Source: a virus
Lineage: Duplodnaviria; Caudoviricetes
Length of the DNA stretch: 62,208 bases
Direction: 5' to 3' (one strand)
Virus record (IMG/VR): IMGVR_UViG_3300048778_000101
Span: 1 to 62,208 of that record
Below the pieces are notes generated by a model, which saw only the letters and a list, made by a program, of their open reading frames with translations, was not told where the DNA came from and made no database searches. Positions 31,190-60,484 of the stretch are shown one piece after another (the stretch's first letter is position 1; the number at the start of each line of letters is the position of its first letter). The position numbers were made by a program, and so were the translations under genes.

Positions 31190-31990
31190 GGATTTGAGAG
31201 GGCCGTAACTAGTCGCGCTTAACCCGACGCCACGGGGCTTCTTATTTGCTGAAACTAGGAATGCTAAACCTACCGCAATTAGGAATGCTTAATTCACCAG
31301 AATTAAATAGGATAAGTGTCCGCCGCAACTAGGCACGCCAAACTTTTCAAGCTAACTTATAACTAACTTCAATTTCGCTAGGCCCCCTGGAAATCAACGA
31401 TTTATCGTACCACGCAAATAGCATTCTGGCAAGAGAAATCCGCTAGTTAGCTTAAGTATTATTAAAACAAGCCGAGATAATTCCGGGCAGTCGCAAGTCT
31501 TGTGTAATTGCCAATTCCCGGCGGAGCCGGGTATAGCTGGAGCCGGGTATAGCCGGGTATAGCTGGAGAATGGTGAGCCGGGGAATGGTGAGCTTGGGAA
31601 TTGCAAGTTAGAAAGTGATGAGTTAAAAGACGAATTGGCAACTGCAAACTAGACCCGAGCTACCCCGGCGCCGCCAGGCTGATTAGAGTTTGGCTAGCTC
31701 GGATAGTTGGTTTAATTGGTCGAAGCTGAGCCGATGCGAATCAGTTTAATTTATTATAACAATACCCGGCGGAGCCGGGGGTAATCGAAGGATGGCAGTT
31801 TCTAGCCTGTCAAATCGCCAAACTAGTCGAAGCTAATTAGAAACTGGCAGCCCCATTTAACCCGCCCAAACAATACCCGTCGTAGCCGGGAATAGCCGAG
31901 CAATCTGCGATAACTTCTAGCTATAGTACATCTATAATAGGAAGCCCGCGGGCCCGCGGCAAAGCACGACTAGTTATCTCAAACCCCCAC
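31190..31990. other. structured non-coding element A (iteron-like boxes, GNA hairpins, palindrome, flanking inverted repeats)
   Basis: no credible ORF; motif-by-motif homology to 52010-52852. Confidence 0.75.
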
Positions 31991-32023
31991 CAGCAATACT
32001 CATCCCGCAAGTTCCCAAATACA

Positions 32024-32067
32024 CAAAATAAAACAGACCAGCCCCAACTCAATGAGACTAGTCTGTT
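32024..32067 (-). terminator. Rho-independent terminator of the head/adaptor operon
   Basis: minus strand AACAGACTAGTCTCA-TTGAGT-TGGGGCTGGTCTGTT followed by TTATTTTG; G:U pairs work only on the minus strand. Confidence 0.7.
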
Positions 32068-32093
32068 ACCAATTCCCCTAATTAACCCTAGAC

Positions 32094-32969
32094 CTAATAA
32101 GCGGACCCGTCCGAAAACCCGCAGGTATCCCAGCCATAACCCAAAGTGCCCATACCCGCAGCGAACCCGCCAGCCCCCCAGAGCCTAGTCCCGCTATCCC
32201 TAATCCGCATCCAATCCGGCGTATGGTCCGTAGAATACCAACCCTCATTCCCATCCGTAATCCGAGCTTGCTGCAACTTACTCTTAGCAACGGCAATCTG
32301 TTGCCCCCGCAACTCCAGCCCAAACTTTTTATCCTTACTCAATGTAAGCGCAACCTCACTAGCCAAATAAGCCACAAAGGCCGCCCTAAACAATGCATCC
32401 CAAATACTCGGAAACATAACCAGCGACGTGTAAACCAACTGCGCCTGCGCTACATTAGTCAAGATAACAGTCTGCCCCGTCGGACTAACCCCAGGCTGCT
32501 CCCAATACTGCCCTTGCATCGGAGGGATGTTATTAAAATCCGTAGCTACCGTAAACCTAGCCGGAACCATCCGTATCGAACTTTGCGTGGGCGAACCAAC
32601 CTGCGCCACCGGATTAGGCGGAGCCATAATATTCCCCGGAGCCCCACTCGCCGTGGAGTTAAATGCATTAACCGGAACAAACCTAGCCTTAACGCAATCC
32701 GCCGGATACTGATACTCATACTGCCACGGAACCGGAACTACAGTCCCCACATTAGGCGTCTGCCCACTCCCGTCAGCCAGCAGAAAGAGGGGCGCTGTCT
32801 TTCTGGCAAAATCCCAATGTGCAGCACGCAGCAACTGCCGAACGCACTGCCCATAGGCCCGTAAGCATACCTGCGCCTCCCGCGTCCCCTCTTCCAAATC
32901 GCCAATTACGACCTCGCTTCCAATCGCATCCAATGCTTGATTAACTACATCTGCGGGTAAATTAGCCAC
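32094..32969 (-). CDS. tail adaptor / tail tubular protein A paralogue 4
   Basis: DVVNQALDAIG...LLRAAHWDFA...WQYEYQYPADC...WDALFRAAFVAYLA. Confidence 0.85.
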   Translation of the reverse strand: MANLPADVVNQALDAIGSEVVIGDLEEGTREAQVCLRAYGQCVRQLLRAAHWDFARKTAPLFLLADGSGQTPNVGTVVPVPWQYEYQYPADCVKARFVPVNAFNSTASGAPGNIMAPPNPVAQVGSPTQSSIRMVPARFTVATDFNNIPPMQGQYWEQPGVSPTGQTVILTNVAQAQLVYTSLVMFPSIWDALFRAAFVAYLASEVALTLSKDKKFGLELRGQQIAVAKSKLQQARITDGNEGWYSTDHTPDWMRIRDSGTRLWGAGGFAAGMGTLGYGWDTCGFSDGSAY

Positions 32970-32971
32970 AA

Positions 32972-33598
32972 TTAGCCCCTTTCCGAGGTGGCTTCAACCG
33001 TACTGCGCAAGGCTAGATCGGCATCCAGTTTCTGCTCGGCCAGCCTCTCCTGCGTCAGTATAGCTATCCTAGGAGATAGTCTTTCCGCCAGCTTAGCCAC
33101 AAGCACTTCCACGAACAACGGCTCCCAGGTGGACATGTCTGTAACTTGCCCGGTGTAGGTCAGAATTGCCCCAGTCACATTGCAGCAAATTGTCTTCTGC
33201 GCGGGCGAATACGACGTATCATTAATCACCGCAAACGAATTAGGCTGCGGATCGAAATTAGGTATCCAAAGCGGAGCGGCTTTAATCGATCGCACTTTAA
33301 GACAATCGCCGGGATAACTATATTCAAACATCCACGGGATCGGGGGATACGCGGGGCTCCAGACCGTAGGCGGAATATACCCATTAGCCGGAGCTACCTT
33401 CAGCACACTTAAGGACAAGTTTCTTTCTGCAAACCCATAGTCATTCGCACGAAGGGCCTCATCCCTAGTCTGAGAATACACCTCCAGGGCAGCTTCAGCA
33501 GCCGGGCTTCCCTCGAACAAATTACCGATACGCCGATCAAACCCCAGCCTCACCAGAGCTTGATTTACAATATCCTCTGGCGAAGTTGGGGATGACAT
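32972..33598 (-). CDS. tail adaptor / tail tubular protein A paralogue 3
   Basis: DIVNQALVRLG...DEALR..YGFA...WMFEYSYPGDC...WEPLFVEVLVAKLA. Confidence 0.85.
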   Translation of the reverse strand: MSSPTSPEDIVNQALVRLGFDRRIGNLFEGSPAAEAALEVYSQTRDEALRANDYGFAERNLSLSVLKVAPANGYIPPTVWSPAYPPIPWMFEYSYPGDCLKVRSIKAAPLWIPNFDPQPNSFAVINDTSYSPAQKTICCNVTGAILTYTGQVTDMSTWEPLFVEVLVAKLAERLSPRIAILTQERLAEQKLDADLALRSTVEATSERG

Positions 33599-33601
33599 AG
33601 C

Positions 33602-34228
33602 TTAAGTTTCCGTAACAGAAGCGACCTGGAACGCATTATCAGCATCCGTATCACTCTGTTTCAGCAGAGCTTCAATGTGCTGCATATTAGCCAGCGCAAC
33701 GGTGAAAGCTTTGGCCAATTTATCAACCAGCGCATTTACGAACAACGTATCCCAAGTGGTCATATCCGTAATTTGGCCAGTGTAGGTCAGAACCAAATTC
33801 GGAGCATTTGCCAGGATAACTCGCTGCGGAGGCGTGTACGCGCTATCATTGCCCACGGCAAAATGCTGCGGAAGCGGGTCCAAATTAGGCAGAACAGCCG
33901 GAGTACTCTGAACATACAGCACTCGGATGCAGTCTGAGGGATAAGCATACTCATATTCCCAAGGGAGAATAGGATATGTATTCGCCCAAGGAGTTGAGCC
34001 ATAGCCACCTGTGGGGGCAGATTTAAGCTGCGTCAAAGTTACAGTTCGCTGCGCAAACCCCCAGTCTTTCATACGCAGGGCTTCATCACGGCTCTGGGAA
34101 TACAAATCCAACGCCAACTTACTGGCCGGACTGCCTTCAAACAAGTTACCAATTCGGCGCGGGTAGCCGAGCTTCCCCAGCGCCATATTAACAATGTCTT
34201 CTGGAGACGTAACGCTACTAGCCATCAA
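33602..34228 (-). CDS. tail adaptor / tail tubular protein A paralogue 2
   Basis: DIVNMALGKLG...DEALR..WGFA...WEYEYAYPSDC...WDTLFVNALVDKLA. Confidence 0.85.
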   Translation of the reverse strand: MMASSVTSPEDIVNMALGKLGYPRRIGNLFEGSPASKLALDLYSQSRDEALRMKDWGFAQRTVTLTQLKSAPTGGYGSTPWANTYPILPWEYEYAYPSDCIRVLYVQSTPAVLPNLDPLPQHFAVGNDSAYTPPQRVILANAPNLVLTYTGQITDMTTWDTLFVNALVDKLAKAFTVALANMQHIEALLKQSDTDADNAFQVASVTET

Positions 34229-34788
34229 TCTTGCCTTTCCTGGCCAACTTGTTCAAACGCCGCCGACTGGTCTAGCGTATCTCTGGAGGTATCCGGTTTA
34301 CCTGCAATTGCCATAGCCATGCTGGAAGCCAACATCCGCACAACAGTTTCGCGGAAAATAGAGTCCCACAAGTTCTCCGATGGGACATTTGTATACATAA
34401 CTTGTGCATTCGGCAAGTTAGTTTGGATTACTTTTGTTGGAATTCCGCCCACCAGGGAATTAGCGACCTCCCATCGAATGGGCAACGGGTTAAAAGGATC
34501 TGCGAGTGTCGGAGGATTTAACTGCCGGACTTGGATACCATTCGGATACAGGTACTCAACAGTCCACGGGAACGGGGCGGTATTCCCTGACAGAACCAGC
34601 GCGGCAGTGGTTCGAGAAAAATCCCAGCCGAACCGACGGCCTACAGTTTCAACCGTCGGAAGATACAAAGAAGCAGCCGCTACACCCGCAGGAGAACTGT
34701 CAAATGTAGGATAAGTCCCAGTAACTGGGGTTTGATTATCCCCGATTAGCTGGATAGCTTGGTTAACGATGTCAGTTGATGTAACCAT
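34225..34788 (-). CDS. tail adaptor / tail tubular protein A paralogue 1
   Basis: DIVNQAIQLIG...WDFS...WTVEYLYP...WDSIFRETVVRMLA. Confidence 0.85.
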   Translation of the reverse strand: MVTSTDIVNQAIQLIGDNQTPVTGTYPTFDSSPAGVAAASLYLPTVETVGRRFGWDFSRTTAALVLSGNTAPFPWTVEYLYPNGIQVRQLNPPTLADPFNPLPIRWEVANSLVGGIPTKVIQTNLPNAQVMYTNVPSENLWDSIFRETVVRMLASSMAMAIAGKPDTSRDTLDQSAAFEQVGQERQD

Positions 34789-34791
34789 GGC

Positions 34792-36999
34792 TTAATACTC
34801 AATCCAAGCCAACCCAGGAGATCCGTTGCCTCCGGGATAACTGCCCGCTGAACCCCCGCCGCCGCCTGCGCAGTATCCGTAAGCATTAGACCCCGCTGCA
34901 CCAGTTTCTATCCCACCCTGCCCGAACTGACTACTCCCACCGCAGGTACCAAACCCTTGCGAAGACATATAAGGTCCGGTGGTGCAAGTATAGGAGTTAG
35001 CTCCAGTGGGAATAGTATCCAGCGGACCGCCCAAAGCTACGCCACCAATTCCAGGTTCGGCAGTGGATCCCACAGTTGCATAAGTTCCGCCCTCGCCACC
35101 AGTAGCCCTAAGAGACCCAACCGTAGTTGTAGCACCGGCAGAGCCATCTACCCCAGCCCCGCTGCCAGAACCGCTGGACCCGATAGTGATAGAGACCGAA
35201 GTTCCTGGAGTGGTGGTTATAACTCCCCTATTCCACCCGCCGGCACCCCCGCCAGCCGCCCCATAGGAAGCTGTACCACCACCGCCGCCGCCGCCACCCC
35301 CACACAGGGTAACTGTGTAACTATACACGCCCGCTGGAACTGTCCAAGTCCCGGACGATGTAACTGCAACCAATCCATGCGGGATAGTTACTGAAAGAGC
35401 CCCGCCACTAAGGGACAAGTTAGCACCAATTGACGCAGAGGCTGCCAGATTTGGTGTCCCGCTCCCTACCAAGACTTCCCCGGAAGCCGGGGGCACAGTA
35501 GTTTGCGTAATTGTATTTGTAAGAGAAGACCCGGAAAGACTTAGACCAGCTCCAACATTAACAGTGGACGCAGTTCCTGCAACTCCAGTTCCCCCCAGAA
35601 GCTGCCCGGCCCCCGGCGGTACGGTAACTTGTGTAATTGTACTGGAGAGTGCCCCACCGCTGAGGTTGAGACCAGCTCCAATAGCTACCGCAGAAGCAGT
35701 CCCGCTAATTCCGCTGCCACCCAACAACTCCCCAGATGCTGCCGGGACTTCGACTTGAGTAATAGTACTAGCAAGCGTACCTGCGGCGAAACTAAGCCCA
35801 GTCCCGACAGTAACACTAGCTGCCTGATTGGCGGTTCCACTCCCACTGAGCAGTTTGGAACCGTCTGACGGAATAGTTGCTTGTGTAATAGTGCTGAACA
35901 AGGTGCCTGAGGTCAGCGAAAGCCCGGCCCCCAGAGAGACATCAGCAGCTTGATTAGGTGTTCCGCTGCCCCCAAGCAGTTTGGTAGCATCCGCGGGGAT
36001 AGTTGCTTGTGTAATAGTGCTGAACAAAGTTCCAGCGATCAGACTGAGACCCGTCCCAACTACCACCGCCGAGGCCGTCCCACTGGTACCACTACCCCCG
36101 AGCAAATCCCCAGAGGCCGGGGGAATACTGTTTGTATTGGTCAGGTATCCGCCGGAGAGTTGCAGCCCAGTTCCAATAGCTACTGGTGAGGCTGTTCCAA
36201 TAAAACCACTTCCACCAAGTAGCTCTCCTGTCGCCGGTGGGATAGTTGCGCAAGGGGCTCCGAAGTCCACGGCATTACCGAATACATCAAATTCCAAGCA
36301 GTTGAAGCTGGCATAACTGCCTGTAGACAATTGAATTCGGGGGCCATTTCCACGAACCGCCGCACTCCCGCCTAGACCGACTACCTGCCCTCCGAATGTG
36401 ATAACAGAGTTCGTTAGGTAAGCATTGGAAATAGACAGGGGGGCGATGTTATTCAGAACAGTTCCGCAGTCTTTTAGAACTGTTCCGGTGGAATTATTCC
36501 AGCAGGCTACATCACCAACTGCGGAGGCATTTGGCCCGCTTAGATAGCCGTTTGTAGGGAGCGTAACTATCTGCCCATTGGCCATGATAGTAAACGGCAA
36601 CGGAGCCGCCCCACCCCCGGAGCCATATTCCAAAAGACCGCTACCCTGTGCATTGGGGCTTAGACAGACGTAATGGTAGCCATTAGCACTAGTTGTTGGG
36701 CCATCGTAGTCGCAGAAGTTGGCCCCATAAGGGCCAGTTCCGCCATTGGGAAAGGGGCCGGTACCAACGCCACGGACGGTGAGACCTAGTTCAGAAAGAC
36801 CTACCCCAATTGCCCCGCCAGCGGCAGTTCCGCTGTCTTGTACAACAGGCTGCCATGCGGTAGATCCGCCAGGGCCAGCGTACATGGGAACATGCCCAAC
36901 GGACCAGGGGCCGCCTTGTATAACTGTGCTCTGCGCATAACTGACTGCTGGTGACAGGGCTAGGCAAACCGCTAGGGAGTAAGGTAGACCGCGCATCAT
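34792..36999 (-). CDS. fibre protein: signal peptide, seven ~42-aa shaft repeats, Gly-rich tip
   Basis: MRGLPYSLAVCLALSPAVSYA/Q; repeats P.xG.LLGGSG...A..V..G.GL.L..G.L..TITQ; SSGTWTVPAGV...CGGGGGGG. Confidence 0.8.
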   Translation of the reverse strand: MMRGLPYSLAVCLALSPAVSYAQSTVIQGGPWSVGHVPMYAGPGGSTAWQPVVQDSGTAAGGAIGVGLSELGLTVRGVGTGPFPNGGTGPYGANFCDYDGPTTSANGYHYVCLSPNAQGSGLLEYGSGGGAAPLPFTIMANGQIVTLPTNGYLSGPNASAVGDVACWNNSTGTVLKDCGTVLNNIAPLSISNAYLTNSVITFGGQVVGLGGSAAVRGNGPRIQLSTGSYASFNCLEFDVFGNAVDFGAPCATIPPATGELLGGSGFIGTASPVAIGTGLQLSGGYLTNTNSIPPASGDLLGGSGTSGTASAVVVGTGLSLIAGTLFSTITQATIPADATKLLGGSGTPNQAADVSLGAGLSLTSGTLFSTITQATIPSDGSKLLSGSGTANQAASVTVGTGLSFAAGTLASTITQVEVPAASGELLGGSGISGTASAVAIGAGLNLSGGALSSTITQVTVPPGAGQLLGGTGVAGTASTVNVGAGLSLSGSSLTNTITQTTVPPASGEVLVGSGTPNLAASASIGANLSLSGGALSVTIPHGLVAVTSSGTWTVPAGVYSYTVTLCGGGGGGGGGTASYGAAGGGAGGWNRGVITTTPGTSVSITIGSSGSGSGAGVDGSAGATTTVGSLRATGGEGGTYATVGSTAEPGIGGVALGGPLDTIPTGANSYTCTTGPYMSSQGFGTCGGSSQFGQGGIETGAAGSNAYGYCAGGGGGSAGSYPGGNGSPGLAWIEY

Positions 37000-37014
37000 A
37001 GTCTTTCATCAAAT

Positions 37015-37071
37015 GGGGCTAGATGTAAGTTTGCACAGTATTAGCAATTACCGCAAGCTTAATCTAGCCCC
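37015..37071. terminator. long intergenic hairpin
   Basis: GGGGCTAGAT.TAAGTTTGC...GCAAGCTTAATCTAGCCCC. Confidence 0.5.
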
Positions 37072-37143
37072 TTTGAAATAGTTGAGAGTTACGGTGAGAT
37101 TCCGGTGGCGAGGCCAGAAGGGTGAAGTTTTTGTTAACTTGCG

Positions 37144-37647
37144 TTAACTCGGAAGTGTCCAAACGACTGCTTGGACGGCGGCTTCTGTGGTTGCGGCGCA
37201 GATCTCAGCCGCAAGAACAGAATTTTGAACGACAAGCGCCTCTTTAGCCACGCTGCCATCCTGTAGAACCTTCAAGATTTGCGGGGCCGTGTGTGCGACA
37301 TAGCCCCAATTTCCAGAAGCATCGGCGCACCAGAACTTTCCGCCAATACCGCCAGCCACCAAACCCACCAGATTGGCTTGGTCGGTTTGGCCTGACGGAT
37401 AGGTATAGACCGCCCCAAGCGCGGAAGACTGAAAGCCCCCAATAATGGCCGACGCACATCCAGCAGATACGGCGTAAATTTGAGTGTCTTGCGCCTGCGC
37501 CAGGGCGGCGGCGGCATAACCCGGAAAGGCCGTGGCCAGTTGGGCCGGGGTGGGGAAATCGTCGAACAACACCTCGCCGGCAGCCGGCGTGTGATCGTTG
37601 GAACAGCAGGAAATGTAGCTCCCATTACCACTCGCTACATACATCAC
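37144..37647 (-). CDS. tail-fibre-associated protein (DUF4376-like)
   Basis: IIGGFQSSALG..YTYPS..TDQANL...FWCAD...HTAPQI..V...AATTEAAVQAVVW. Confidence 0.75.
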   Translation of the reverse strand: MMYVASGNGSYISCCSNDHTPAAGEVLFDDFPTPAQLATAFPGYAAAALAQAQDTQIYAVSAGCASAIIGGFQSSALGAVYTYPSGQTDQANLVGLVAGGIGGKFWCADASGNWGYVAHTAPQILKVLQDGSVAKEALVVQNSVLAAEICAATTEAAVQAVVWTLPS

Positions 37648-38567: not shown

Positions 38568-38570
38568 GTC

Positions 38571-39782: not shown

Positions 39783-40139
39783 TTACTGCCCCTCTACGAT
39801 AACTAGTGTGGTCCCGAGTGGGGAGATGGAGTAAAGGGCTTGACGAGATATTACAGTATCCAAAGTGAGCGTAGACCCTGCCGGCAGAATAAGATTGGCG
39901 GTAGTCGCGGCGGCCCCGAAATTCAGATAACTGTTATAGTTACCAGTATTCTGGATCTGGAGGTACTTGCGAGAGGTGTTGGCAGCAAGGATTTGGGAAC
40001 TGGAAGAGGTTACAGTTCCCGTAGATAGGCCCATAGTAACGAAAGTTTGAGAAGAACTTGAAGGGTAGGGAACCTGCGAATATGCAGGAAGGCTAAGGCT
40101 TCCCAGAACTAGGGCCAGGATGAGGGGCTTAGTCTTCAT
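39783..40139 (-). CDS. small beta-rich decoration-like protein with signal peptide
   Basis: MKTKPLILALVLGSLSLPAYS/Q; ILAAN.SRKYL.IQN.G..YLNFG. Confidence 0.7.
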   Translation of the reverse strand: MKTKPLILALVLGSLSLPAYSQVPYPSSSSQTFVTMGLSTGTVTSSSSQILAANTSRKYLQIQNTGNYNSYLNFGAAATTANLILPAGSTLTLDTVISRQALYSISPLGTTLVIVEGQ

Positions 40140-41021: not shown

Positions 41022-41026
41022 AATCT

Positions 41027-41260: not shown

Positions 41261-41288
41261 AGGAAAACTCCGCGACAAGAGGTCAAGA

Positions 41289-43347: not shown

Positions 43348-43352
43348 ACGCC

Positions 43353-44607: not shown

Positions 44608-44632
44608 TATCTTGAACTCCTAGTTAGCGCGC

Positions 44633-45682: not shown

Positions 45683-45709
45683 ATACTAAGTCCTTTCTAT
45701 ACTGGGCAG

Positions 45710-46471
45710 TTAACGCCCGCTTTGGGTAGAGGTGGGATGATTATACAAAACTCCCCGACGATTAGCCGGAGTATTAGGCTGCGGAGCGGGAGTTCCGCGA
45801 ACAGCGGGGATTTTCGGCTCATCATAAATTCGGGCAAGGTTATGGAAAGCCTTGAGAAAAGCCGGATGATCCCCAGCCCCAGTTACCCGAAGAAAGTCGT
45901 CAAAAGCCGCCCGATCTTCTGCCGGAACCGCCATATCCCGAACTCGGGCAATAGCACTCATTGCGGTCTGATGGCCCGCTCCACCGATCTTTTCATCGGA
46001 CATAACTTGGGTTCTCCAAGTCTTCCTAACATCTGCAAAAGAGGCGTGCTGCTGGGCCAATGTATCAGTGCCAAGTTTGGCAATTGCCGTAGCATGCAGA
46101 TTAAGCAATTCCTGCCCAACTTCAGCAGACATATTGTGCTTAGTTAGGACATCTCGGTAGATACTCATAGAGGCCGGATCGGGCTCAACCCCTCCGGGCA
46201 GCTCGAACTTGTAATCCGCCAGACTAACCGGCTCGGTGACTTTAACCTCAGAGACAGGATCTACCGGCTTGGCATCTTCTTTAGCCCCAACCGGCTCCGC
46301 TTTAACGTCAGCAGGCTCTGCCGCAACTTCGGCGGGCTTGGTAACTTCGGGAGTTTGCCCCACACCTTCAAGGAGAGAGGGAACTTCGGTATGCAGAACC
46401 ACAGCAGTCTCAACCGCAACTGCGGGAACTTCTACCGTAACTTCTGCAGGAGCCTCAGCAACGTCGGTCAT
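45710..46471 (-). CDS. capsid scaffolding protein
   Basis: acidic/Pro-rich N-terminus, YKFELPGG, TGAGDHP.F.K.F, C-terminal VLY; directly upstream of the MCP. Confidence 0.8.
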   Translation of the reverse strand: MTDVAEAPAEVTVEVPAVAVETAVVLHTEVPSLLEGVGQTPEVTKPAEVAAEPADVKAEPVGAKEDAKPVDPVSEVKVTEPVSLADYKFELPGGVEPDPASMSIYRDVLTKHNMSAEVGQELLNLHATAIAKLGTDTLAQQHASFADVRKTWRTQVMSDEKIGGAGHQTAMSAIARVRDMAVPAEDRAAFDDFLRVTGAGDHPAFLKAFHNLARIYDEPKIPAVRGTPAPQPNTPANRRGVLYNHPTSTQSGR

Positions 46472-46872
46472 TTCATACCTCTCATCTTGATGTTAACCTT
46501 TGAAAATCTCGGGTCAAGCTCATCATGCATCGTAGCTACCTCCGAGCGAACTATCTTCAAAAGATGCAGGTATAATCTAAGCCCAAAAGCCTGCTGGCCG
46601 GCGTGGAACCAAGTTGCCTCAACCTGCGGAAACCCATTAGGACCAGTTGCGAACCGCTCTTCAAAAGTTCCCGCATCTTGCAAGAGCCCCCAGACAATTC
46701 CCCGGCCGGTGGGGTGCCCCATAATAGCTCTCCAGAACTCAAGTGTCTCCAGTTCCCGCAGGCGAGCCTTCTCCCGCGCCTTATTGACACCTGAACGACT
46801 TCCAGCGTCTGGGGTTTCCACCTCCGGGTCGTCTGAAACTTCGTCAAATAGTTCCAACTGTTCGTCTTCCAT
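46468..46872 (-). CDS. Bbp19-like head-module protein
   Basis: MGHPTGRGIVWGLL..AG.F...F..GQQ..GL. Confidence 0.75.
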   Translation of the reverse strand: MEDEQLELFDEVSDDPEVETPDAGSRSGVNKAREKARLRELETLEFWRAIMGHPTGRGIVWGLLQDAGTFEERFATGPNGFPQVEATWFHAGQQAFGLRLYLHLLKIVRSEVATMHDELDPRFSKVNIKMRGMK

Positions 46873-46880
46873 GGGAACTC

Positions 46881-47294
46881 CTAGTGCAGCATACCAGTGG
46901 ACTGTACGTGCTGTTTTGAGGTAATACTGGCCGGGGGGAGGATCGCCCCTTTAATTCCGGTTTTATCGTGCCGAAGATGCTCGGCCAAGTTAGCTCCTAG
47001 GCGCAAATTATCTCCAAGCATCCCAAACAACTTGCGGGGCCGCCTGCCACGGAGCCATCCACCAGCTTTTTCGTGTGCCATCTCCATGGCAATTCCCAGA
47101 GGGAACCAGCGAGAGTCTTCTCGCCAATGCCCAACTTGGCGACAGCATCCTTCGATAAGTTTAAGGGACTTTCGCAATTCCCCATATGCCTGCCCCATGA
47201 CAGGCAGCTTTACCAGTCTATCACAGCAACTAGCTGCCTTCTTAAAATTCTCCACCATACAGGAGAAGATTTCACCCTCAGTTAGATCAGACAT
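46881..47294 (-). CDS. hypothetical protein
   Basis: ORF between the portal and the Bbp19-like gene. Confidence 0.6.
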   Translation of the reverse strand: MSDLTEGEIFSCMVENFKKAASCCDRLVKLPVMGQAYGELRKSLKLIEGCCRQVGHWREDSRWFPLGIAMEMAHEKAGGWLRGRRPRKLFGMLGDNLRLGANLAEHLRHDKTGIKGAILPPASITSKQHVQSTGMLH

Positions 47295-47296
47295 AC

Positions 47297-49111
47297 TTAT
47301 TGTCCTCCCGGAATTCCGAGTAATGCATTCAGTGCAGAATTTCCACCCACATTAGTTTCGCTAAGTGTCTTAGCAGCCTGTACCCCGGCCATAGTTGGAG
47401 CAATTGCCTGCTGCTTAGCCTGAGCACTCTGCCGGGCGGCGTCCTGTTCCTGCACCTCCTTCGCAGTGTACAAAGCATCGGCAGGGAAGCTACTCATATC
47501 TGCGTACCTGCGCATTGCGGCGTCCAGATTGAAAATACGCAGGGGATCGGGAACTCCGGCAGCTTTGGCAGCGGCGCTCATACTACCAGCCATGCCTAGG
47601 GTATCTTTCATAGCTACGGTTTCAGTAGCCCTTTGCGCCAGCTTTAGAATTGAAATGTACTCAATCTTCAGCGGAACATTGTGCAAAGACTCCGGCAATG
47701 GGAGTAGCATCCCCCGGCGCCGCATAATTGACAATACTCTGGTAATGGCCGGTCCGGCGAACTCTGTCTCAAACAGTTCAATAAACGGCCCAAGTATCTG
47801 AAGACGCTCCAGATCTCGCTTAGTTAGCTCCAACTCATTCCTGGGCTGCACACCTTCCATCTGGCTAATTGCCATAAAGATGTCTGTGAAAAAACATTTC
47901 TTAATCCGATCCTGGATCTCCTTAATATCCTGTACAATCGGTTGCAAGGCTTGAGGGTTAACTTCAAACAAGGGGAAGAAGCCCTTTCTACCGCCAGCCG
48001 TGCTCATGTAGGTAATCTGGCCGGGGAGGATCGAACTAGGCTCATTCTTCAATTCTGGATCAGCCCCCATCGGAGGTCTAACTACCTTTTCAAGTAATTC
48101 CGCCTTCCTGCGAGTTTCCTGCTGAAGCTGTTTTATATCTCCAAGAGCATCCATACCGGGACTACGCCCGTAGGGATCATTGCTAACTGTAGACCAGCGG
48201 GCTGCCATGAACGGGCGTTCGTTAAAACCCCGCCTGGACAGTTCTCGGTCAGTTTTAACCCCCTTTAGCCAATATACCTCTCTCCAGGGGAAATGGCCGG
48301 GAACCACAGTTACTGAAGCAGTCTCACCAGTACCCCGTTTGGAACTGATTGGGGCATTAGGTTCAATAGCATGCGCAACCACATGCTCCAATGACAAACT
48401 TGCTCCCCCAGTTTCCCAGGCAGTTCTAACTTGCTGCGGGCAATTATCCAGGGTAAACATCTCTACTATCTGCGCTGTGTTCAGTGTGAACTCCCGGTAA
48501 AAGGCATCGACACTGAGCCGGCCTCCGACATCGAGATAGTATTCTCCCGCGCACGAACCATAGCAGCGAATTACATCCTCATCATCTTCATAGATAATTA
48601 TGGGAGCCGTACCGAATGTAGTAACATCTTGGAAAGCTTGGGCCATAGTTGTATAGAAATTAGATTGGCCCAGTACAGTATAAAGCTTCCTTTCTGTGTC
48701 CTCGATCCAATACTTCCCATCCCGATCAAGCTGGTCATAACTATTACCGAGCTTGAACCAGGGTCGCGAGGGGCTAGTTAGCCCGGTCCAAAGTCCGCTG
48801 GAGCATGTCTGCATAGCCAGGGTAGCTGTACTATCCACGATACTCTGGTTAATTGGGCTGCCTCGGGTCATCCTGTTGGCAACCACTAGCCAGTGATACC
48901 GGCGCGGGAGAATGTATTCTGCCAAACTTGCCCAATAGGCCCACCAACTATAGCGCCAACTGCGAAGCATACCCAAGCGAGATTCACAAGCCCCATAGAT
49001 AGCAGGCCAATCTTTACCCGCTGGGGCGGGATTACCCAAAGTTAGGGGCTGTTGTGCCAGTAGCGTGGGGCTCATATGTTCGTAAGGGGCGGAACTGAAA
49101 TCTTCAGCCAT
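47297..49111 (-). CDS. portal protein (head-tail connector)
   Basis: DSTA..A...L.SGL..GLTSPSRPWF; SNFY; RW....YGRSPGMDALGD.KQLQ; IEYISIL..AQ. Confidence 0.93.
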   Translation of the reverse strand: MAEDFSSAPYEHMSPTLLAQQPLTLGNPAPAGKDWPAIYGACESRLGMLRSWRYSWWAYWASLAEYILPRRYHWLVVANRMTRGSPINQSIVDSTATLAMQTCSSGLWTGLTSPSRPWFKLGNSYDQLDRDGKYWIEDTERKLYTVLGQSNFYTTMAQAFQDVTTFGTAPIIIYEDDEDVIRCYGSCAGEYYLDVGGRLSVDAFYREFTLNTAQIVEMFTLDNCPQQVRTAWETGGASLSLEHVVAHAIEPNAPISSKRGTGETASVTVVPGHFPWREVYWLKGVKTDRELSRRGFNERPFMAARWSTVSNDPYGRSPGMDALGDIKQLQQETRRKAELLEKVVRPPMGADPELKNEPSSILPGQITYMSTAGGRKGFFPLFEVNPQALQPIVQDIKEIQDRIKKCFFTDIFMAISQMEGVQPRNELELTKRDLERLQILGPFIELFETEFAGPAITRVLSIMRRRGMLLPLPESLHNVPLKIEYISILKLAQRATETVAMKDTLGMAGSMSAAAKAAGVPDPLRIFNLDAAMRRYADMSSFPADALYTAKEVQEQDAARQSAQAKQQAIAPTMAGVQAAKTLSETNVGGNSALNALLGIPGGQ

Positions 49112-49114
49112 AAC

Positions 49115-49339
49115 CTATTGCCCCAGGAGAGTTTTAGCGGCAGTTGCAGTAGTCCCGGTGACGCCTTGAGCCGAAGTTCCGCCCAAAGTGTCACTAAAAC
49201 CCATACCACCAGCCGCAGCAGCAGCGGCTCTTTGTGCAGCAGCAGAACCCGCAGCCTGTACTTGCGCACTAGCTTGCGTAGCCGGGATAGGCGGAGGCGA
49301 AACTGCGGCAGGTGCTGCGGGAGTAGATCCACCACCCAT
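49115..49339 (-). CDS. small Ala-rich virion protein
   Basis: MGGGS.P..PPP...KTLLGQ pattern between TerL and portal. Confidence 0.65.
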   Translation of the reverse strand: MGGGSTPAAPAAVSPPPIPATQASAQVQAAGSAAAQRAAAAAAGGMGFSDTLGGTSAQGVTGTTATAAKTLLGQ

Positions 49340-49351
49340 AATTAGAACTCC

Positions 49352-50788
49352 TTACCAGATTGTGGAATATTTATCATCATGCCCGTCGAATGGGTCGTAG
49401 TCAAACTTATGCCACCCACTTCTAGCGGCTGACTTCCTGCGAGCGGTTACGGGGAAAGCGAAAGTTAGGGCAAACGCATCTGCGTGGTCCGGGGAGTAGC
49501 CAAGTTTGCCTTTAATAACGTCCTTAGGCTCCAGAATAAGTTTACTGCCCTTGAAAGTGTAGGTAGTAGCCGAAAGCGCATCGAAGAGCTTCTTATTGTA
49601 AGGAAGAGCGCCCCCACGTTTGACCCATTCGATAGCTTGGAAGTACATCTCCGCTCGCTTATTGGCGTAACGGGTATCATCGCCAGCCTTAGTAGCAAAA
49701 CCAACTCCGATTGGGGACTTTCCAAGGTTACGGAGTTGGTCTAGCCAGCCGGCGCCAAACCCGCCGGTATCATCTACAAAGCAGGCGTCTGCACCCCAGT
49801 TATCCCATTCGCGAATGGTAACCTCAGCCCCTTGGGTACTATCCAGTCCGCGATAATCCAAAAATCCGAAGCATTGAACACCCTGGCGCTTGCAGATTAC
49901 GCTCTCATCATCCCCGTGGCGAGCTACGTCAATCCCAAGAACCTTAGCAGCTACTCCTATGTCAAATTCTCTGTAGTATCTTTTTGAGGCAGCTTCCAGT
50001 TCCGGTAGCCCTATTAAGGCATTCAGGGATTGCGGCGGGAATTGCCCAAACACATTGACTAGCACCCAGGGATTATCACGGCCATACTTTTCAATCTGCT
50101 CATTGGCCCACTGCACGCTAATTCGAGGGGATCTCTTCGGGCTTTCGGGGTCTCCGGTAATTTCCACAACATACCAGAGGTGTTTTTCATCGGTGGTAGC
50201 TCTGTATAGCGGGCCTTCTCGCATGGTGGGATTACCGGCTTGGATAATATGCCCTTCTTTACAGGAAGATAGGGCAGCTTCGGCAGTAGCCATAACTGCG
50301 TCCGGGATACCGCCGCTCTCATCCAGAAGGAATAGGATAAAATCGGCATGCAGCCCAGCCAGGGTGTCCGATTGCTGGCTTTTGTCGGCAGTTTTACTCC
50401 AAGTTCGCGCCGTCATAAACCAAGTTTCGGAGTATTCCTTGTGGCTAATTCTGGTCTTAGTCCAAGTAAACATCTCTTTTAGTAGTGGAGAATTTTCCTG
50501 CCACTTCGCCATTTCGGCCCATAGATTATCAGATAGATTATCCTTGCTGATTGAGGTAGCCGCAACTTTGGGCATGGGACGGGTTAGTAGAAAGTTCCAA
50601 GCCAACCAGGCCAACAAGGCTGTCTTTCCGGGGCCTTTGCAAGCCTTCATAGCTATGCGTTGGTTTTTTGGGAAAGCTTGGAGAACTTCCGCCTGCCAGT
50701 CGTCAGGTTCTACTCCGAAGAGTTCCCGGACCATAACTACTGGATCATCGCGCCAGGCCCGGAGTTTGGCAATTGCTGGTAGACTCAT
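49352..50788 (-). CDS. terL: terminase large subunit
   Basis: KACKGPGKT, FLLDESG, GNP, LGIDVAR.GDD, SPD.ADA.ALTF. Confidence 0.95.
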   Translation of the reverse strand: MSLPAIAKLRAWRDDPVVMVRELFGVEPDDWQAEVLQAFPKNQRIAMKACKGPGKTALLAWLAWNFLLTRPMPKVAATSISKDNLSDNLWAEMAKWQENSPLLKEMFTWTKTRISHKEYSETWFMTARTWSKTADKSQQSDTLAGLHADFILFLLDESGGIPDAVMATAEAALSSCKEGHIIQAGNPTMREGPLYRATTDEKHLWYVVEITGDPESPKRSPRISVQWANEQIEKYGRDNPWVLVNVFGQFPPQSLNALIGLPELEAASKRYYREFDIGVAAKVLGIDVARHGDDESVICKRQGVQCFGFLDYRGLDSTQGAEVTIREWDNWGADACFVDDTGGFGAGWLDQLRNLGKSPIGVGFATKAGDDTRYANKRAEMYFQAIEWVKRGGALPYNKKLFDALSATTYTFKGSKLILEPKDVIKGKLGYSPDHADAFALTFAFPVTARRKSAARSGWHKFDYDPFDGHDDKYSTIW

Positions 50789-51357
50789 TTCTTATCCCAG
50801 TCTTTTGAGATAGGTTGGAAGGGGTCTAGTTCCAAGGAGTCTGCTATACTATCCAGGTCTGTGGAATTATCCACGGGAGTTATATCAACTAACTCTGGGT
50901 CTTCGTAGCTTTTGGTTACTAGATCGGCCCAGGTTAGTTTGACGTCGTGTTCGATTTGCTGCTTGTCCCGCCAGCTAACTTCACGACGATTTTTCAGCCA
51001 GAAAGTAGCTGCTGCTGTGTCTGGGGCGACGTCTTCTCTAGTTTCGGTGACAGTTATGGAACCTTCGCTGTCGGTAACTGTTTTGGTAGTGGTTTTAACT
51101 CCGCCGATTGCCCGATTATAGAGTGCCAGAGCTACTTTACCGTCGGATTCTACGCGGCCTTGGGATAGGTAGGTAGTTATCTCCGGCGTGCGCTTCTTCC
51201 AGGAATTGAAAATAGCCTCGCTAACTCCGAAGTAAGCTCCGATTTCGGCATCGGCAAGCCCCAACAAGGCCAGTCTGTACACAGTAGCCAGTGCTTCTTG
51301 CCGGGAAGTTGCGGGAATAGCTGCGGGGACAAGTGAGACTGCTGTTTTCGGGGGCAT
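50785..51357 (-). CDS. terS: terminase small subunit
   Basis: LLGL.D.EI..YFGVS....NSWKK; V..ALY.RA.G; PDT.A..FWLKNR...WRDK. Confidence 0.88.
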   Translation of the reverse strand: MPPKTAVSLVPAAIPATSRQEALATVYRLALLGLADAEIGAYFGVSEAIFNSWKKRTPEITTYLSQGRVESDGKVALALYNRAIGGVKTTTKTVTDSEGSITVTETREDVAPDTAAATFWLKNRREVSWRDKQQIEHDVKLTWADLVTKSYEDPELVDITPVDNSTDLDSIADSLELDPFQPISKDWDKK

Positions 51358-51579
51358 TTAGGAAGCCTCCGAGCGGGTTTTGTAGATTAGGTTCTGGAAA
51401 CCATTGCTGTTTAGCATGTAGCTTACCCAAGATTGCGGCAAATGCAGCAATTCAGCATAAGTTTCATGGGAAGCTTCGGGAAGTTTGAGAACTAGGTTAA
51501 GCAGATCATCTTTAGCGGGCATGGGAAGGTTCCTTAGCTGATTTAGCTGAGTATGCCATGCCAGAGGGTTTAATGTCAA
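51358..51579 (-). CDS. small HTH-like protein
   Basis: ASHETYAELLHLPQSWVSYML.S..FQ. Confidence 0.5.
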   Translation of the reverse strand: MTLNPLAWHTQLNQLRNLPMPAKDDLLNLVLKLPEASHETYAELLHLPQSWVSYMLNSNGFQNLIYKTRSEAS

Positions 51580-51583
51580 TTGA

Positions 51584-51907
51584 TTAGGGGAATTCGCGAA
51601 GGGTTTGGTCGATTATTGCATCGACCATTTGGTTATCTATTTTCAGTATGGCCAGATAACCGGACTGGGTAGTTTCATCCCATACTTGTTTGACGCGAAG
51701 TCTCCAGGCGGTTTTGATTAGCGGGTACCAGATGTGATCGGGACGGGTTCTGATAGTTTCCAGGAAGTATTTCCAATAGCGATGTGTATTTTCCAAATGC
51801 GGGCGGGAGAGGCAGAAAGCAAATTTAGCGCGGGAGGTAGTTTGCAGTTTTTCTAGGATTATGTGGAATTCAATTGGGTAGTCATCGGGATCGTGGTGGC
51901 GGATCAT
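51584..51907 (-). CDS. hypothetical protein
   Basis: GGAG RBS; first gene downstream of element B. Confidence 0.55.
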   Translation of the reverse strand: MIRHHDPDDYPIEFHIILEKLQTTSRAKFAFCLSRPHLENTHRYWKYFLETIRTRPDHIWYPLIKTAWRLRVKQVWDETTQSGYLAILKIDNQMVDAIIDQTLREFP

Positions 51908-52009
51908 AGTTGCGCTCCGTTTGGAATTGTCAGATTTAGTTAGCGGCGCTTGGTGAGCTTGCGAACCTTAGCAGAGCTTACGGCGCGTTCATATGAATTT
52001 TTGCATTTA

Positions 52010-52852
52010 ATTAACTGGCGCATTTGCCATGTGCTTATATTGAAACTAGTCATGCTAAACCCGAATTGAAACTAAGCATGCTAAACTCCGGGATAATTAG
52101 GCACGCCAAACTTTGAGATAATTAGGAGCCTCTAACTAGCACGCGCTGTCCCCCGCAAACCAACGATTTATCGTAGCATGAAATTCCGCAGTTAGCAAGG
52201 CTAATCTTATCCAAGCTAGAATTAAAACCCCGTCGAAGACGGGTATAGCTCCATAATTGCCATAATTGCCATAATTGCCATAATTCCGAAACCGACAGCT
52301 GTAATAATATAAATAACTCCACCCAATTTCCGCGGAGCCCGGCGGAGCCGGGGATAGTTCGGGATAGTTCTAGATAGTTCCAGCTAGTTCTATAGTTTGC
52401 AAATACCTGGAGTAGCTCAACAGTTACCGGAATTGCCGCAATCACCTAGTATGGTTAAAGAATTAGCCGCAATTCCCGCCGAACAAGTCCCGCGCGGTTT
52501 CGGAAACTGCTAGTTATAATGCACAATCCCCGCGCAATTCCGGCAGTTCCCGCGCAAGCTTTGGCCCGCCGGAGGTGGGTATAACTCTGCCAGCTAGTCT
52601 AATTCATGCCAGTTGGTCTAATACAGCTTCTAATTAATATGAAACAGTTCCTGAGATAACTAGCGAGGCTAATTTGAATTACCCAAAATTGGGAAATCGC
52701 CAAGTATGGGGGAACGCAACCGACCCCCGCCACCCTACCCCCAAACTCCAAATTAGCCCCCCTACCCCAGTCTAGCCAATCTCGCTAGTTAAGCTAAGCT
52801 AATCAAGCCGCGAGCGCCGCGGGCCCGCGGTTAAGCGTCCCTAGTTACGGGC
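52010..52852. other. structured non-coding element B, homologue of element A
   Basis: same motif order as 31190-31990, plus (CCATAATTG)x4 and TAGTTC tracts phased at 10 bp. Confidence 0.75.
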
Positions 52853-60482: not shown

Positions 60483-60484
60483 CC

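Follow-up and report, generated by a model that had tools for sequence, protein, structure and literature searches.

Two related non-coding stretches of about 1 kb, here called elements A and B, occur in the genome of a peat podovirus, and the question that they raise is what such a pair does. A preliminary description of this DNA had proposed replication origins or termini, packaging or cutting sites, recombination sites, or late-transcription activator sites. Our analysis covered a stretch of 62,208 nt (the window), whose relevant features are collected in Table 1. As described before, A and B hold no credible ORF, and five motif classes recur in both in the same order and orientation. The elements share 25 exact direct words of at least 9 nt (shuffle mean 3.69, maximum 11 in 200 shuffles) and 13 inverted exact matches (shuffle mean 3.5, maximum 10), and they align with a mean column identity of 70% and many gaps; no exact match exceeds 17 nt, so the spacers between motifs have indeed diverged. 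Regarding gene context, a 107-aa ORF and the terS, terL, portal and capsid genes come downstream of B, and the unit preceding B ends at a long hairpin that follows two small genes. A comes after a strong terminator, which forms its upstream edge, and precedes a gp12-like tail-tube gene; on its other side lies the gp11-like gene, third in a tandem row of three paralogues. Contigs of an independent DNA run match A throughout, apart from 14 nt of a tandem tract, which argues against the misassembly that had been considered. These data support the proposal of two paralogous, cis-acting non-coding elements that each head a late transcription unit.

Table 1. Coordinates of elements A and B, their predicted parts and neighboring features in the window.
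Feature	Position	Strand	Remarks
Element A	31085-32093		1,009 nt; ORF-free
Element B	51908-52931		ORF-free
gp12-like tail tube B gene	27725..31084	-	first gene downstream of A; phrog_376, E 2e-158
gp11-like tail tube A gene	32094..32969	-	last gene upstream of A; phrog_394
Small terminase subunit gene	50785..51357	-	second gene downstream of B; phrog_309, E 1e-32
Intrinsic terminator, gp11-like (tail tube A) operon	32032..32067	-	15-pair stem followed by TTATTTTGTG
Promoter P_A (predicted)	31404..31432	-	TTGCCA, 17 nt, TGg, TACGAT; motif (ii) at 31395-31409 as -10 and start region
Promoter P_B (predicted)	52170..52198	-	TTGCTA, 17 nt, TGc, TACGAT; motif (ii) at 52161-52175 as -10 and start region
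Early promoter paralogue	692..719	+	TTGCTA-16-TATAAT; leader homologous to that at 58327
Early promoter paralogue and leader	58327..58448	+	TTGCTA-16-TGaTATAAT; start region common to P_A
Predicted untranslated leader, gp12-like operon	31085..31397	-	~310 nt; placed from the position of P_A
Predicted untranslated leader, terS-terL-portal-capsid operon	51908..52163	-	~255 nt; placed from the position of P_B
Four 17-bp boxes, P_A leader	31207..31343	-	at 31207, 31253, 31277, 31327
Three 17-bp boxes, P_B leader	52044..52111	-	at 52044, 52070, 52095; spacing 25-26 bp
Three C(GNA)G mini-hairpins then ATAG, A	31517..31890	+	31517-31531, 31765-31779, 31876-31890
Three C(GNA)G mini-hairpins then ATAG, B	52229..52579	+	52229-52243, 52338-52352, 52565-52579
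Tandem tracts	A: 31523-31601; B: 52251-52285, 52353-52392
Left arm, long inverted repeat	31150..31246		inside P_A leader; C-rich in mRNA sense
Right arm, long imperfect inverted repeat flanking A	31936..32021		GC palindrome 31946-31959; degenerate inverted box and CTAGTTA 31960-31976
Far-end module of B	52817..52850		GC palindrome 52817-52830; inverted box and CTAGTTA 52830-52847

The clearest lead comes from motif (ii), CAACGATTTATCGTA, which is exact at 31395 and 52161 and had been described as a dyad. On the minus (gene) strand it would correspond to the -10 and start region of a predicted sigma70-type promoter, TTGCYA-17-TGnTACGAT. The broader pattern TTGCYA-N15-18-TAYRAT occurs four times in the 62 kb (0.24 expected; no shuffle of 100 reaches four), always in non-coding DNA and aimed at downstream genes: besides P_A and P_B, the copies at 692 and 58327 head early operons. 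A generic promoter scan picked P_A unaided, with a TG preceding its -10, and missed P_B, which matches 8 of 12 hexamer positions. At 58356, the early promoter carries the 23-nt start region of P_A again, with one mismatch (0.00 expected); this homology also accounts for inverted repeat I1. The four cassettes can be aligned through -35, -10, start region and box positions. Thus, the earlier suggestion of late-transcription activator sites stands as far as transcription control is concerned, with the difference that motif (ii) looks like a sigma70-type promoter with its leader, in a four-member family that includes two early operons. As had been noted, no RNA polymerase or sigma factor is recognisable among the phage proteins in searches including Pfam and PHROGs, so promoters for the host polymerase would be required.

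The 17-bp box, AAYTAGGCAYGCYAAAC, points in the same direction. Allowing up to three mismatches, 11 matches lie in the window, against 0.96 expected and none of 100 shuffles reaching that number. They comprise the six sites already described (31253, 31277, 31327, 52044, 52070 and 52095), a fourth one in A (31207), an inverted copy at the far end of B (52830-52846, minus strand), one in an early leader (58432-58448, 15/17 matching, in the same orientation relative to transcription as the late boxes), and two in coding DNA (6262 and 25006) that look like chance. Leaving these last aside, boxes are found solely in A, B and that one early leader; the other box-like sites of the early leaders are weak. 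The first box starts 60 nt past the -10 in the P_A leader and 58 nt past it in the P_B leader, and a first box or box-like site falls at 58-60 nt in all four cassettes. In the 14-nt box cores, 29 of 49 positions are complementary (random sets 12.1 +/- 2.9, maximum 22; shifted registers 4-19), a partial dyad symmetry that suggests operator-like sites.

With a probability of roughly 0.5, we consider A and B to be duplicated, lineage-specific terminator/promoter/operator regions that coordinate two late operons, and that would define two late (virion-gene) transcription units of a podovirus dependent on host RNA polymerase. Read along the gene (minus) strand, each element would comprise the end of the preceding unit (the strong terminator at A, the long hairpin at B), a far-end module with a box-like site and a 14-bp GC palindrome, some 400-500 bp in which three C(GNA)G mini-hairpins, with ATAG after each, occur alongside 9-16-bp tandem tracts, an AT-rich tract, the predicted promoter, and an untranslated leader of 255-310 nt that holds three boxes in B and four in A, all with partial dyad symmetry. 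Host RNA polymerase would initiate at P_A and P_B, and a putative dimeric DNA-binding regulator would sit on the box arrays just downstream of both, so that the tail/ejection and packaging/head operons would be switched together; promoter activity, regulator binding and timing are what we infer here. Nonetheless, operators at 58-150 nt downstream of a promoter are unusual, and an RNA-level or non-transcriptional role of the boxes is possible. Neither a DNA-binding regulator nor a box-binding protein was found in the proteins scanned against Pfam and/or PHROGs or by Atlas look-ups. The hairpins and tandem tracts, about 500 bp per element, also fall outside this account; for that half we favor insulation or a supercoil-sensitive DNA structure upstream of the promoters.

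How the pair arose can be approached through relatives. The closest one found, G062 (49-65% protein identity; TerL 62%, capsid 65%, portal 51%, gp11-like 51%, gp12-like 49-61%), has neither element, and no match to the hairpin core or the promoter pattern. Its gp11-like stop overlaps its gp12-like start where A sits in the phage, and its genes ahead of terS/TerL are gapless. A would therefore appear to be a lineage-specific insertion: a B-like region was probably duplicated into the junction of gp11 and gp12, so that what had been one operon would have become two. The preliminary description had held that lack of conservation of the motifs in relatives would speak against it; they are absent from every relative found, all of them distant. 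A rather improbable proposal, compatible with the control-region model since it concerns origin and evolutionary role, is that of a mobile or recombinogenic terminator/promoter unit copied into this junction, an equally doubtful extension being that the two copies mark module boundaries for exchange of the head/packaging block. Proposed analogues are promoter-bearing MITEs and the PeSL cassettes of T4-like phages, composite terminator/promoter motifs described as mediating modular shuffling (PMC4122927). The 1,009-nt insertion fits such a proposal, as does an imperfect inverted repeat of ~97 nt (up to ~150 nt in nested segments) flanking A (Smith-Waterman score 39 vs. 17.6 +/- 2.6; 0 of 300 shuffles reach 39), which the control-region model leaves unexplained. 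However, B has no such flanking repeat (its score is equalled or exceeded in 59 of 300 shuffles), just two copies exist, no target-site duplication was seen on reading the element ends, no transposase or homing gene is adjacent, and no other phage contig searched carries a copy. Head-module proteins are 51-65% identical to relatives in TerL-selected IMG/VR contigs, and none of these loci has a match to the 893-aa and 1966-aa proteins encoded downstream of A (the gp12-like one matches only weakly), but this head-versus-tail contrast is partly built in, since TerL served to select the loci, which extend just 10 kb to either side, and G062 does have a gp12-like gene. Exact A-B identity of at most 17 nt is also a poor substrate for homologous exchange; with no A/B hybrid junction seen, it disfavors the sites for excision of the head module suggested before.

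The same relative bears on packaging. Two cutting sites, yielding 21- and 41-kb pieces, had been suggested; this idea is weakened by G062, which lacks both elements and is similar in size, as its contig has 53,963 nt and is rated 85% complete. It seems highly improbable that the boxes are small-terminase sites with genome ends in one or both elements, a scheme that likens them to the three R sites of lambda cosB just upstream of terS. The three boxes of B do precede the first gene of the terS-terL operon, at a distance of 137-204 bp, and short repeat arrays are known beside genome ends in T7-type phages. Nonetheless, the same boxes recur in A, between tail genes, and one in an early leader, and G062 does without the elements despite its related TerL; the 127-nt terminal repeat of the record is an assembly overlap, uninformative on ends.

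The mini-hairpins open further readings. CCCGNCGNAGNCGGG followed by NATAG has six copies in the elements (31517, 31765, 31876, 52229, 52338 and 52565), and over the two strands of the window the pattern is matched 10 times vs. 0.52 expected (0 of 100 shuffles reach 10). All six lie on one strand, with 6-bp stems (35 of 36 stem cells pair) and 3-nt GGA, GAA or GTA loops of invariant G and A. The loop asymmetry and a single G-T pair favor the plus strand, antisense to the genes, which the control-region model does not account for. The hairpin at 52243..52229 is also terminator-like on the minus strand. The far-end palindrome, CCGCGGGCCCGCGG, is found at 31946 and 52817, in both cases with ..AAGC....CTAGTTA after it.

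A role as replication origins, which transcription might activate, would put these parts to another use: 17-bp repeats as iterons for a putative initiator, AT-rich tracts for unwinding, and plus-strand GCGNAGC-type mini-hairpins as single-strand initiation signals, an arrangement resembling RSF1010 oriV (iterons, AT-rich DNA, ssiA/ssiB) and the paired ori/crr of P4. We regard this as unlikely. Each element does have three to four direct repeats, with AT-rich tracts adjoining promoter and hairpins; the one-sided hairpins carry the core GCGGAGC/CGAAG, reported as a "mini-hairpin DNA" motif at the G4 origin, RSF1010 ssiA and N4 promoters (PMC13037366); and Pfam/PHROGs scans found no primase gene, which leaves room for a host primase recruited by the hairpins or for a primer made by RNA polymerase. 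On the other hand, no initiator gene was found, A and B contain no DnaA box (five matches in the window vs. 3.33 expected), the same box and promoter cassette heads an early operon, GC skew tracks gene orientation, and the closest relative, with the same replication-independent gene order, lacks both elements. Among the four candidate functions, transcription control is the one for which the sequence offers positive evidence.

The heptamer GCGGAGC is identical to the core of N4 early-promoter hairpins (PMC13037366, PMC4496689). It is nevertheless extremely improbable that extruded plus-strand (template) hairpins are read leftwards into the late operons by a phage polymerase: the stems, loops and heptamer speak for it, and with the plus strand as template transcription would follow gene direction, but no RNA polymerase was found by Pfam or PHROGs, and the virion protein of 1966 aa, a relative of LPD-domain polyvalent proteins, lacks the DxDxD motif and has no sequence match to solved structures at E up to 1. 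Moreover, the flank conserved in six of six copies (ATAG) is on the wrong side, upstream in N4 terms, the start-side flank being conserved only among the copies of A. This reading is already weakened.

A structured RNA, for example a plus-strand transcript with GNA-loop hairpins or a read-through minus-strand one with an RNase III-processed A-flank stem, is very unlikely. On its plus strand, though not on the other (z -0.68), the upstream half of A folds better than its shuffles (z -2.44, 0/100), which also counts against the control-region model; the flanks of A can form a ~150-nt duplex (ddG -61.5 vs. -21.3 +/- 4.4; 0/100 shuffles); and two of six hairpin copies have one compensatory pair, with one G-U tolerated on the plus strand only. 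This covariation is not significant, however (42 of 500 shuffles reach it), B shows no fold excess on either strand (z -1.35 and -1.21) and no flank pairing by cofolding, and the sole plus-strand promoter match is a tandem-repeat product, hence not convincing. No Rfam family matched the elements even at E up to 5, three hits in B being far under cut-offs, and the tRNA search found none. The leaders are not structured RNAs, since their folds are no more stable than shuffles for P_A (z 0.13) and less stable for P_B (z +1.41).

Broadly, the pair resembles a gene-control cassette that was duplicated rather than a novel type of machine; after literature and database search it still holds that no described element has the whole architecture, but each part is of a known type. 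In a few genomes of Armatimonadales, the hairpin with its ATAG likewise forms an intergenic repeat present in multiple copies, a weak lead to the host, given a GC content of 0.52 in the phage vs. 0.68-0.69 in the loci bearing the motif.

The window is a complete IMG/VR virus record of 62,208 nt with two gene blocks of opposite polarity: the plus-strand genes extend from 53738 through the junction to 14584, the minus-strand genes from 51907 down to 15012 (see table). The two related non-coding elements, referred to here as A and B, each stand ahead of a late operon of virion genes. The first and last 127 nt are identical (1-127 and 62082-62208), most simply an assembler overlap from a circular or permuted genome, and uninformative on the physical ends. 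Among the phage genes there is none recognisable as an RNA polymerase, sigma factor, primase or replication initiator; the DNA polymerase carries a uracil-DNA-glycosylase-superfamily domain (PF03167, residues 29-178) fused to exonuclease and polymerase domains.

Features of the phage genome, with the minus-strand genes in gene order and A and B in their places; P_A and P_B are the predicted promoters, and boxes the 17-bp repeats
Feature	Position	Strand	Details
Other plus-strand products		+	AAA ATPase, Dda-like helicase, PD-(D/E)XK nuclease, Sak4-like protein, HNH endonuclease, endolysin
Family-A DNA polymerase	11105-13543	+	UDG-like N-terminus
Element B	51908-52931		
107-aa ORF		-	
terS		-	phrog_309
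TerL		-	55% identical to Xanthomonas CP2-like phages
Portal		-	T7-type, PF12236
Capsid protein		-	42% identical to phiV10/epsilon15-like phages
Fibre-like proteins		-	
Three tandem paralogous gp11-like tail-tube-A genes	32094-34228	-	phrog_394; 291, 208, 208 aa
Element A	31085-32093		
gp12-like tail-tube-B gene		-	phrog_376
Internal virion proteins		-	505, 196, 893, 1966 aa
1966-aa virion protein	17074-22974	-	C-terminus matches internal virion protein family phrog_6651
Small genes		-	
P_A (predicted)	31432..31404	-	TTGCCA-17-TGgTACGAT; 9/12 on hexamers; also found by generic scan
P_B (predicted)	52198..52170	-	TTGCTA-17-TGcTACGAT; 8/12 on hexamers
Fourth box in A	31207		
Inverted box adjoining palindrome, B	52830-52846		
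Inverted box adjoining palindrome, A	31960-31976		degenerate copy
Good box in early leader	58432-58448		
C-rich, G-poor tract, B	52715-52775	+	G-runs on minus strand
C-rich, G-poor tract, A	31977-32050	+	G-runs on minus strand
Inverted repeat around A	31150-31246, 31936-32021		imperfect
Small gene, 71 aa	53206-53421	-	between divergent region and B
Small gene, 77 aa	52932-53165	-	arginine-rich; between divergent region and B
Early/late divergent region	53511-53738		palindrome ACAAGCAAACTTGT

The motif classes listed in the preliminary description were all recovered, in position and far above chance. The boxes have 11 matches in the window (0.96 expected) and the hairpin plus ATAG has 10 (0.52 expected), the 15-nt "dyad" word and the 14-nt palindrome occur once per element, and tandem tracts are confirmed in both. 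Additional to that list are the fourth box in A, an inverted box adjoining each palindrome and a box in the early leader, as well as an enrichment of CTAGTTA, with 8 of the 23 window copies falling within A and B. The two elements have 25 direct exact words of at least 9 nt in common (mean 3.69 and maximum 11 in 200 shuffles), the longest only 17 nt, and globally align with 70% column identity and many gaps; neither holds a credible ORF. Strongly C-rich, G-poor tracts on the plus strand adjoin the palindrome, on opposite sides in A and B. The phage occurs in roughly 19 peat studies. In an independent DNA run, the contigs agree with A apart from 14 nt within a tandem tract. The four variants of sequencing run X6 in A (31483, 31492, 31729 and 31989) all fall outside the motifs, for which the chance estimate is about 4 in 10.

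Since the late genes lie on the minus strand, the elements are to be read on that strand, where the "dyad" word CAACGATTTATCGTA becomes TACGATAAATCGTTG, the -10 hexamer and start region of a predicted sigma70-type promoter. With 17 nt between their hexamers, P_A and P_B fit the definition of this class (a -35 near TTGACA and a -10 near TATAAT, separated by 16-18 nt), and both carry the extended -10 TG. The pattern TTGCYA-N15-18-TAYRAT has exactly four matches in the genome (0.24 expected; 0 of 100 shuffles reach four), every one in non-coding DNA, upstream of a gene block and pointing at it. The two remaining copies (692 and 58327, plus strand) carry a TATAAT -10, head early operons and sit in a 130-nt repeat; furthermore, a copy of P_A's 23-nt start region, differing at one position, lies at 58356. 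When the four cassettes are aligned, their -35 and -10 hexamers, start regions and boxes fall into register, and the first box or box-like site starts 58-60 nt past the -10 in all of them, so that the three boxes would lie within the predicted untranslated leaders, of about 310 nt in A and 255 nt in B. Assembled contigs of three metatranscriptome runs (X10, X14 and X17) cover the flanking genes in part, up to 31141 and from 32173 onward, and none covers 31171-32172, including the predicted leader at 31142-31397, a lack of cover that has no bearing on P_A or on an abundant RNA.

Neither leader has a more stable fold than shuffled sequence (z 0.13 for A, +1.41 for B), and the boxes, spaced 25-26 bp apart in B, have partly dyad-symmetric cores, with 29 of 49 complementary positions against 12.1 +/- 2.9 in random sets, a significance overstated by the non-independence of the copies. 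Because of this location, the lack of excess fold and the symmetry, we favour the boxes as candidate operator sites for a dimeric DNA-binding protein rather than as an RNA signal. No HTH, RHH or other DNA-binding family appeared in the proteins scanned (Pfam, PHROGs and two Atlas look-ups). The two small genes between the divergent region and B, whose 71-aa and 77-aa products match no protein family, are, together with that region, candidates for the switch and the box-binding protein.

From these sequence patterns, A and B would be duplicated control regions jointly driving both late operons, a reading to which we give about even odds (roughly 0.5); the assignment of P_A and P_B as promoters is held more firmly. 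Each region would combine a terminator or insulator, a hairpin array, a host-type promoter and an operator-like leader. The interpretation in the preliminary description is partly right. Present evidence does not make the finding a new class of cis-acting machine. The parts are of known kinds, and what is unusual is their combination, size and twin arrangement. No description of such paired elements was found within a limited literature search. The OL and OR regions of lambda each contain three 17-bp dyad-symmetric operators. The phage elements are alike in having a predicted sigma70-type promoter (TTGNNA-17-TGnTAnnAT) and two arrays of three 17-bp, partly dyad sites, 24-26 bp apart, each array for one operon, and in having an extra site at the far end, which could permit looping. 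They differ in that the boxes do not overlap the promoter but follow it at 58-150 bp downstream, that the phage has no recognised repressor gene, and that each element holds about 500 bp of extra hairpin and repeat DNA.

Direct repeats, AT-rich tracts and GC-rich hairpins are also the ingredients of iteron origins (lambda ori, RSF1010 oriV, P4 ori/crr). A and B resemble these in their three or more direct 17-bp repeats, AT-rich tracts of 10-20 nt and GC-rich hairpins, and in being two related cis sites per genome. The promoter sits between the AT-rich tracts and the box repeats. That A and B are replication origins is doubtful: no initiator gene was recognised, neither element has a DnaA box, and the repeats go with a family of promoters of which one member serves an early operon too.

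Both elements also contain hairpins on the plus strand, three in each; a 6-bp GC stem closes a G-N-A loop, and (N)ATAG comes next. Among the six copies, 35 of 36 stem cells are paired and the loop G and A are invariant; one stem position has a compensatory change in two copies, and one G-T pair is tolerated on the plus strand only. With six copies this covariation is not significant, being reached by 42 of 500 shuffles. Three of the six have U-rich tails on the minus strand (by reading), and scans flagged two of these as terminator-like, one just before P_B; on these grounds the hairpins may act partly as insulation. Their GCGGAGC core is the "mini-hairpin DNA" heptamer of N4 virion-polymerase promoters, the G4 origin and RSF1010 ssiA (PMC13037366, PMC4496689). 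The likeness extends from this core (GCGGAGC, or CGAAG/CGTAG variants) to the 3-nt GNA loop, the 5-6-bp GC stem and the three copies per locus, while the phage differs in having no recognised cognate polymerase or primase gene, in a conserved ATAG flank unlike the N4 start region, and in placing its copies upstream of late rather than early genes.

We regard the idea that these hairpins are themselves N4-like promoters as barely credible. They do fit the 5-7-bp stem, 3-nt purine-centred loop and GC-rich heptamer of the published definition (PMC4496689), but a CAATW start region is common to A's three copies only, not B's, the flank that all six copies have in common lies on the wrong side for such a promoter, and no virion or early single-subunit RNA polymerase was found among the phage genes. 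The relatives of the 1966-aa protein are polyvalent virion proteins with LPD domains: over its first 1300 residues it matches large "polyvalent" proteins in which PF18834, PF18760 and PF18809 domains occur. It has neither a DxDxD motif nor a sequence match to solved structures. One homologue of it is labelled as from an Armatimonadota MAG. A structured RNA produced from the elements is very improbable too: Rfam gave no match at the gathering cut-off and nothing credible at E up to 5 (best 21.8 bits against a cut-off of 39). ARAGORN found no tRNA.

No sequence relative of A or B was found in INPHARED (distant mode), IMG/VR or metagenome contigs. The closest phage found is the IMG/VR contig G062 (53,963 nt, rated 85% complete), with identities of 62% for TerL, 65% for the capsid, 51% for the portal, 51% for the gp11-like and 49-61% for the gp12-like protein. 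The gp11-like stop and gp12-like start overlap in G062 and are 1,009 nt apart in the window; terS and TerL of G062 are preceded by co-directional genes with no gap, and the hairpin core and promoter pattern are absent from it. In L074, a more distant relative from metagenome contigs (52% identity), the gp12-like gene directly follows another gene, again with no gap. For these reasons A and B appear to be lineage-specific, with A a probable insertion splitting an ancestral operon, the comparison being with distant relatives that probably infect other hosts. Two of the three gp11-like genes have a 79-nt stretch 77% alike, and G062 has a single 309-aa orthologue beside its gp12-like gene. The preliminary description had counted absence of the motifs from relatives as evidence against it, and absent they are from the relatives found, distant though these are. 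G062, similar in genome size and lacking the elements, also speaks against an obligatory cutting into 21- and 41-kb pieces. A packaging (cos/pac) function is highly unlikely. As terS-binding repeats beside the terS gene, the boxes fit in position for B only.

A is bordered by a long, imperfect inverted repeat (Smith-Waterman score 39 against 17.6 +/- 2.6; 0 of 300 shuffles reach it), nested segments of which extend as far as the stop codon of the gp11-like gene and to within about 35 nt of the start of the gp12-like gene. When cofolded, the flanks have a ddG of -61.5 kcal/mol (-21.3 +/- 4.4 in shuffles). B has no comparable flanking repeat, its score being reached by 59 of 300 shuffles and its cofold likewise unexceptional. 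The repeat around A could be either a trace of insertion or functional, for instance in processing of read-through RNA. Rho sites were considered, as the leader of A contains a C-rich, G-poor stretch (C 0.40-0.45, G 0.10-0.18), and were dropped because B's leader is only mildly C-rich and A's stretch is the inverted copy of the G-rich right arm. A mobile or recombinogenic cassette, which would be compatible with the control-region reading, we rate a shade more doubtful than replication origins. Of the features of MITE-like elements, terminal inverted repeats occur at A and not at B, no target-site duplication was seen at the repeat ends of A, and the two copies in the genome are the only ones in the collections searched. 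An X6 DNA contig aligns over 30829-32833 at 85% likeness with short sides and with joints 30829/30933, 30982/32223 and 32270/32833, skipping 30982-32223 and 32270-32833; it may come from a diverged relative lacking or replacing A, in pieces too short to interpret.

Composite terminator/early-promoter motifs are described as the PeSL cassettes of T4-like phages (PMC4122927). A and B are similar as repeated units of a terminator-like stem-loop plus a promoter at module boundaries, one of them exactly where a relative has contiguous genes, a comparison resting on one distant relative. They are dissimilar in being far larger (about 0.8-1 kb), in having two late and two early copies only, in carrying operator-like boxes and in that no recombination products were observed. 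If the control-region reading is true, this orphan peat phage reveals how late genes can be organised in a polymerase-less podovirus: a cassette of terminator, hairpin array, host-type promoter and operator array was duplicated, with one copy placed between two tail genes whose counterparts in a relative are translationally coupled, yielding two operons under one control logic and a concrete, testable case of operon splitting through cassette duplication.

Broader searches returned scattered matches. TerL relatives in IMG/VR comprise 47 loci at up to 63% identity, none of which has a box even when 2 mismatches are allowed; a two-mismatch version of the dyad word occurs in one, the palindrome in one and a single hairpin core in eleven, and two (L009, L011) have large ORF-free gaps upstream of TerL with unrelated repeats. 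Relatives of the gp12-like protein were found at two IMG/VR loci (28% identity) and three loci in metagenome contigs. Scanning IMG/VR for the box gave 21 loci with one exact match each, three of them with a second site 42 nt away; in the one of these inspected the site lies inside a 935-aa ORF, and it was discarded. Tandem boxes were seen in IMG/VR at five loci (three identical; GC 0.29-0.38) without the other motifs, about four being expected by chance on our own estimate, and were also set aside. In the same collection, hairpin plus ATAGY gave seven single matches only, promoter plus start one match in AT-rich DNA, and the end module none.

Among 185,579 species (one genome each), CCCGGCGGAGCCGGGNATAG occurs at 14 loci, and a single uncultured Armatimonadales genome (G001) accounts for four; when up to one mismatch is allowed, G001 has 21 copies and the reversed control gives 1. 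In Armatimonadales, 3 of 61 sampled genomes carry the relaxed motif CCGGCGNAGCCGGGNATAG in multiple copies (15, 7 and 2; controls 0), and across the phylum it is present in 3 of 301 sampled genomes (15, 7 and 1 copies). REP and BIME elements are multicopy intergenic hairpins of bacteria. The Armatimonadales copies resemble them in being multicopy, intergenic and within a composite, as the middle of three hairpins, with an (A/G)TAG tetranucleotide beside a hairpin; the phage, unlike them, has no composite. The shared hairpin-plus-ATAG is weakly suggestive of a common host factor or of a link to a host, a rare lead for an uncultured phage, to a narrow Armatimonadales clade. The lead is weak because GC is 0.52 in the phage against 0.68-0.69 in the Armatimonadales loci, the likeness covers about 20 nt only (middle hairpin plus ATAG, not the full composite), the box has no match in G001, and BLAST of phage positions 1-60000 against G001 gave none.

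It is improbable, though conceivable from these patterns, that the plus-strand C(GNA)G hairpin arrays are DNA-level signals of a kind also used by the host lineage in multicopy intergenic repeats of its own, such as those in a few Armatimonadales genomes. With the iteron-like boxes and the promoter, the two arrays would form twin transcription-activated replication or priming sites; A and B would then be a duplicated unit of origin and late promoter, through which late transcription is coupled to replication in a phage that has no recognisable polymerase, sigma factor, primase or initiator type.

In G001 and G025, another Armatimonadales genome, loci L098-L124 carry the multicopy composite with loop types GAAG/UUCG, GNA and UUCA, which may represent an undescribed REP-like or RNA family; Rfam's Acido-Lenti-1 gave near-threshold matches only (35.5 bits against a cut-off of 37), beside bacterial repeats and not in the phage. 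Repeats of another kind occur in the early region of the phage, with 135 nt at 96% (60081/61519) and 75 nt at 71% (59735/61799) within 59735-61873, and 63 nt at 84% (54812/58944), which suggests duplicated small early genes.
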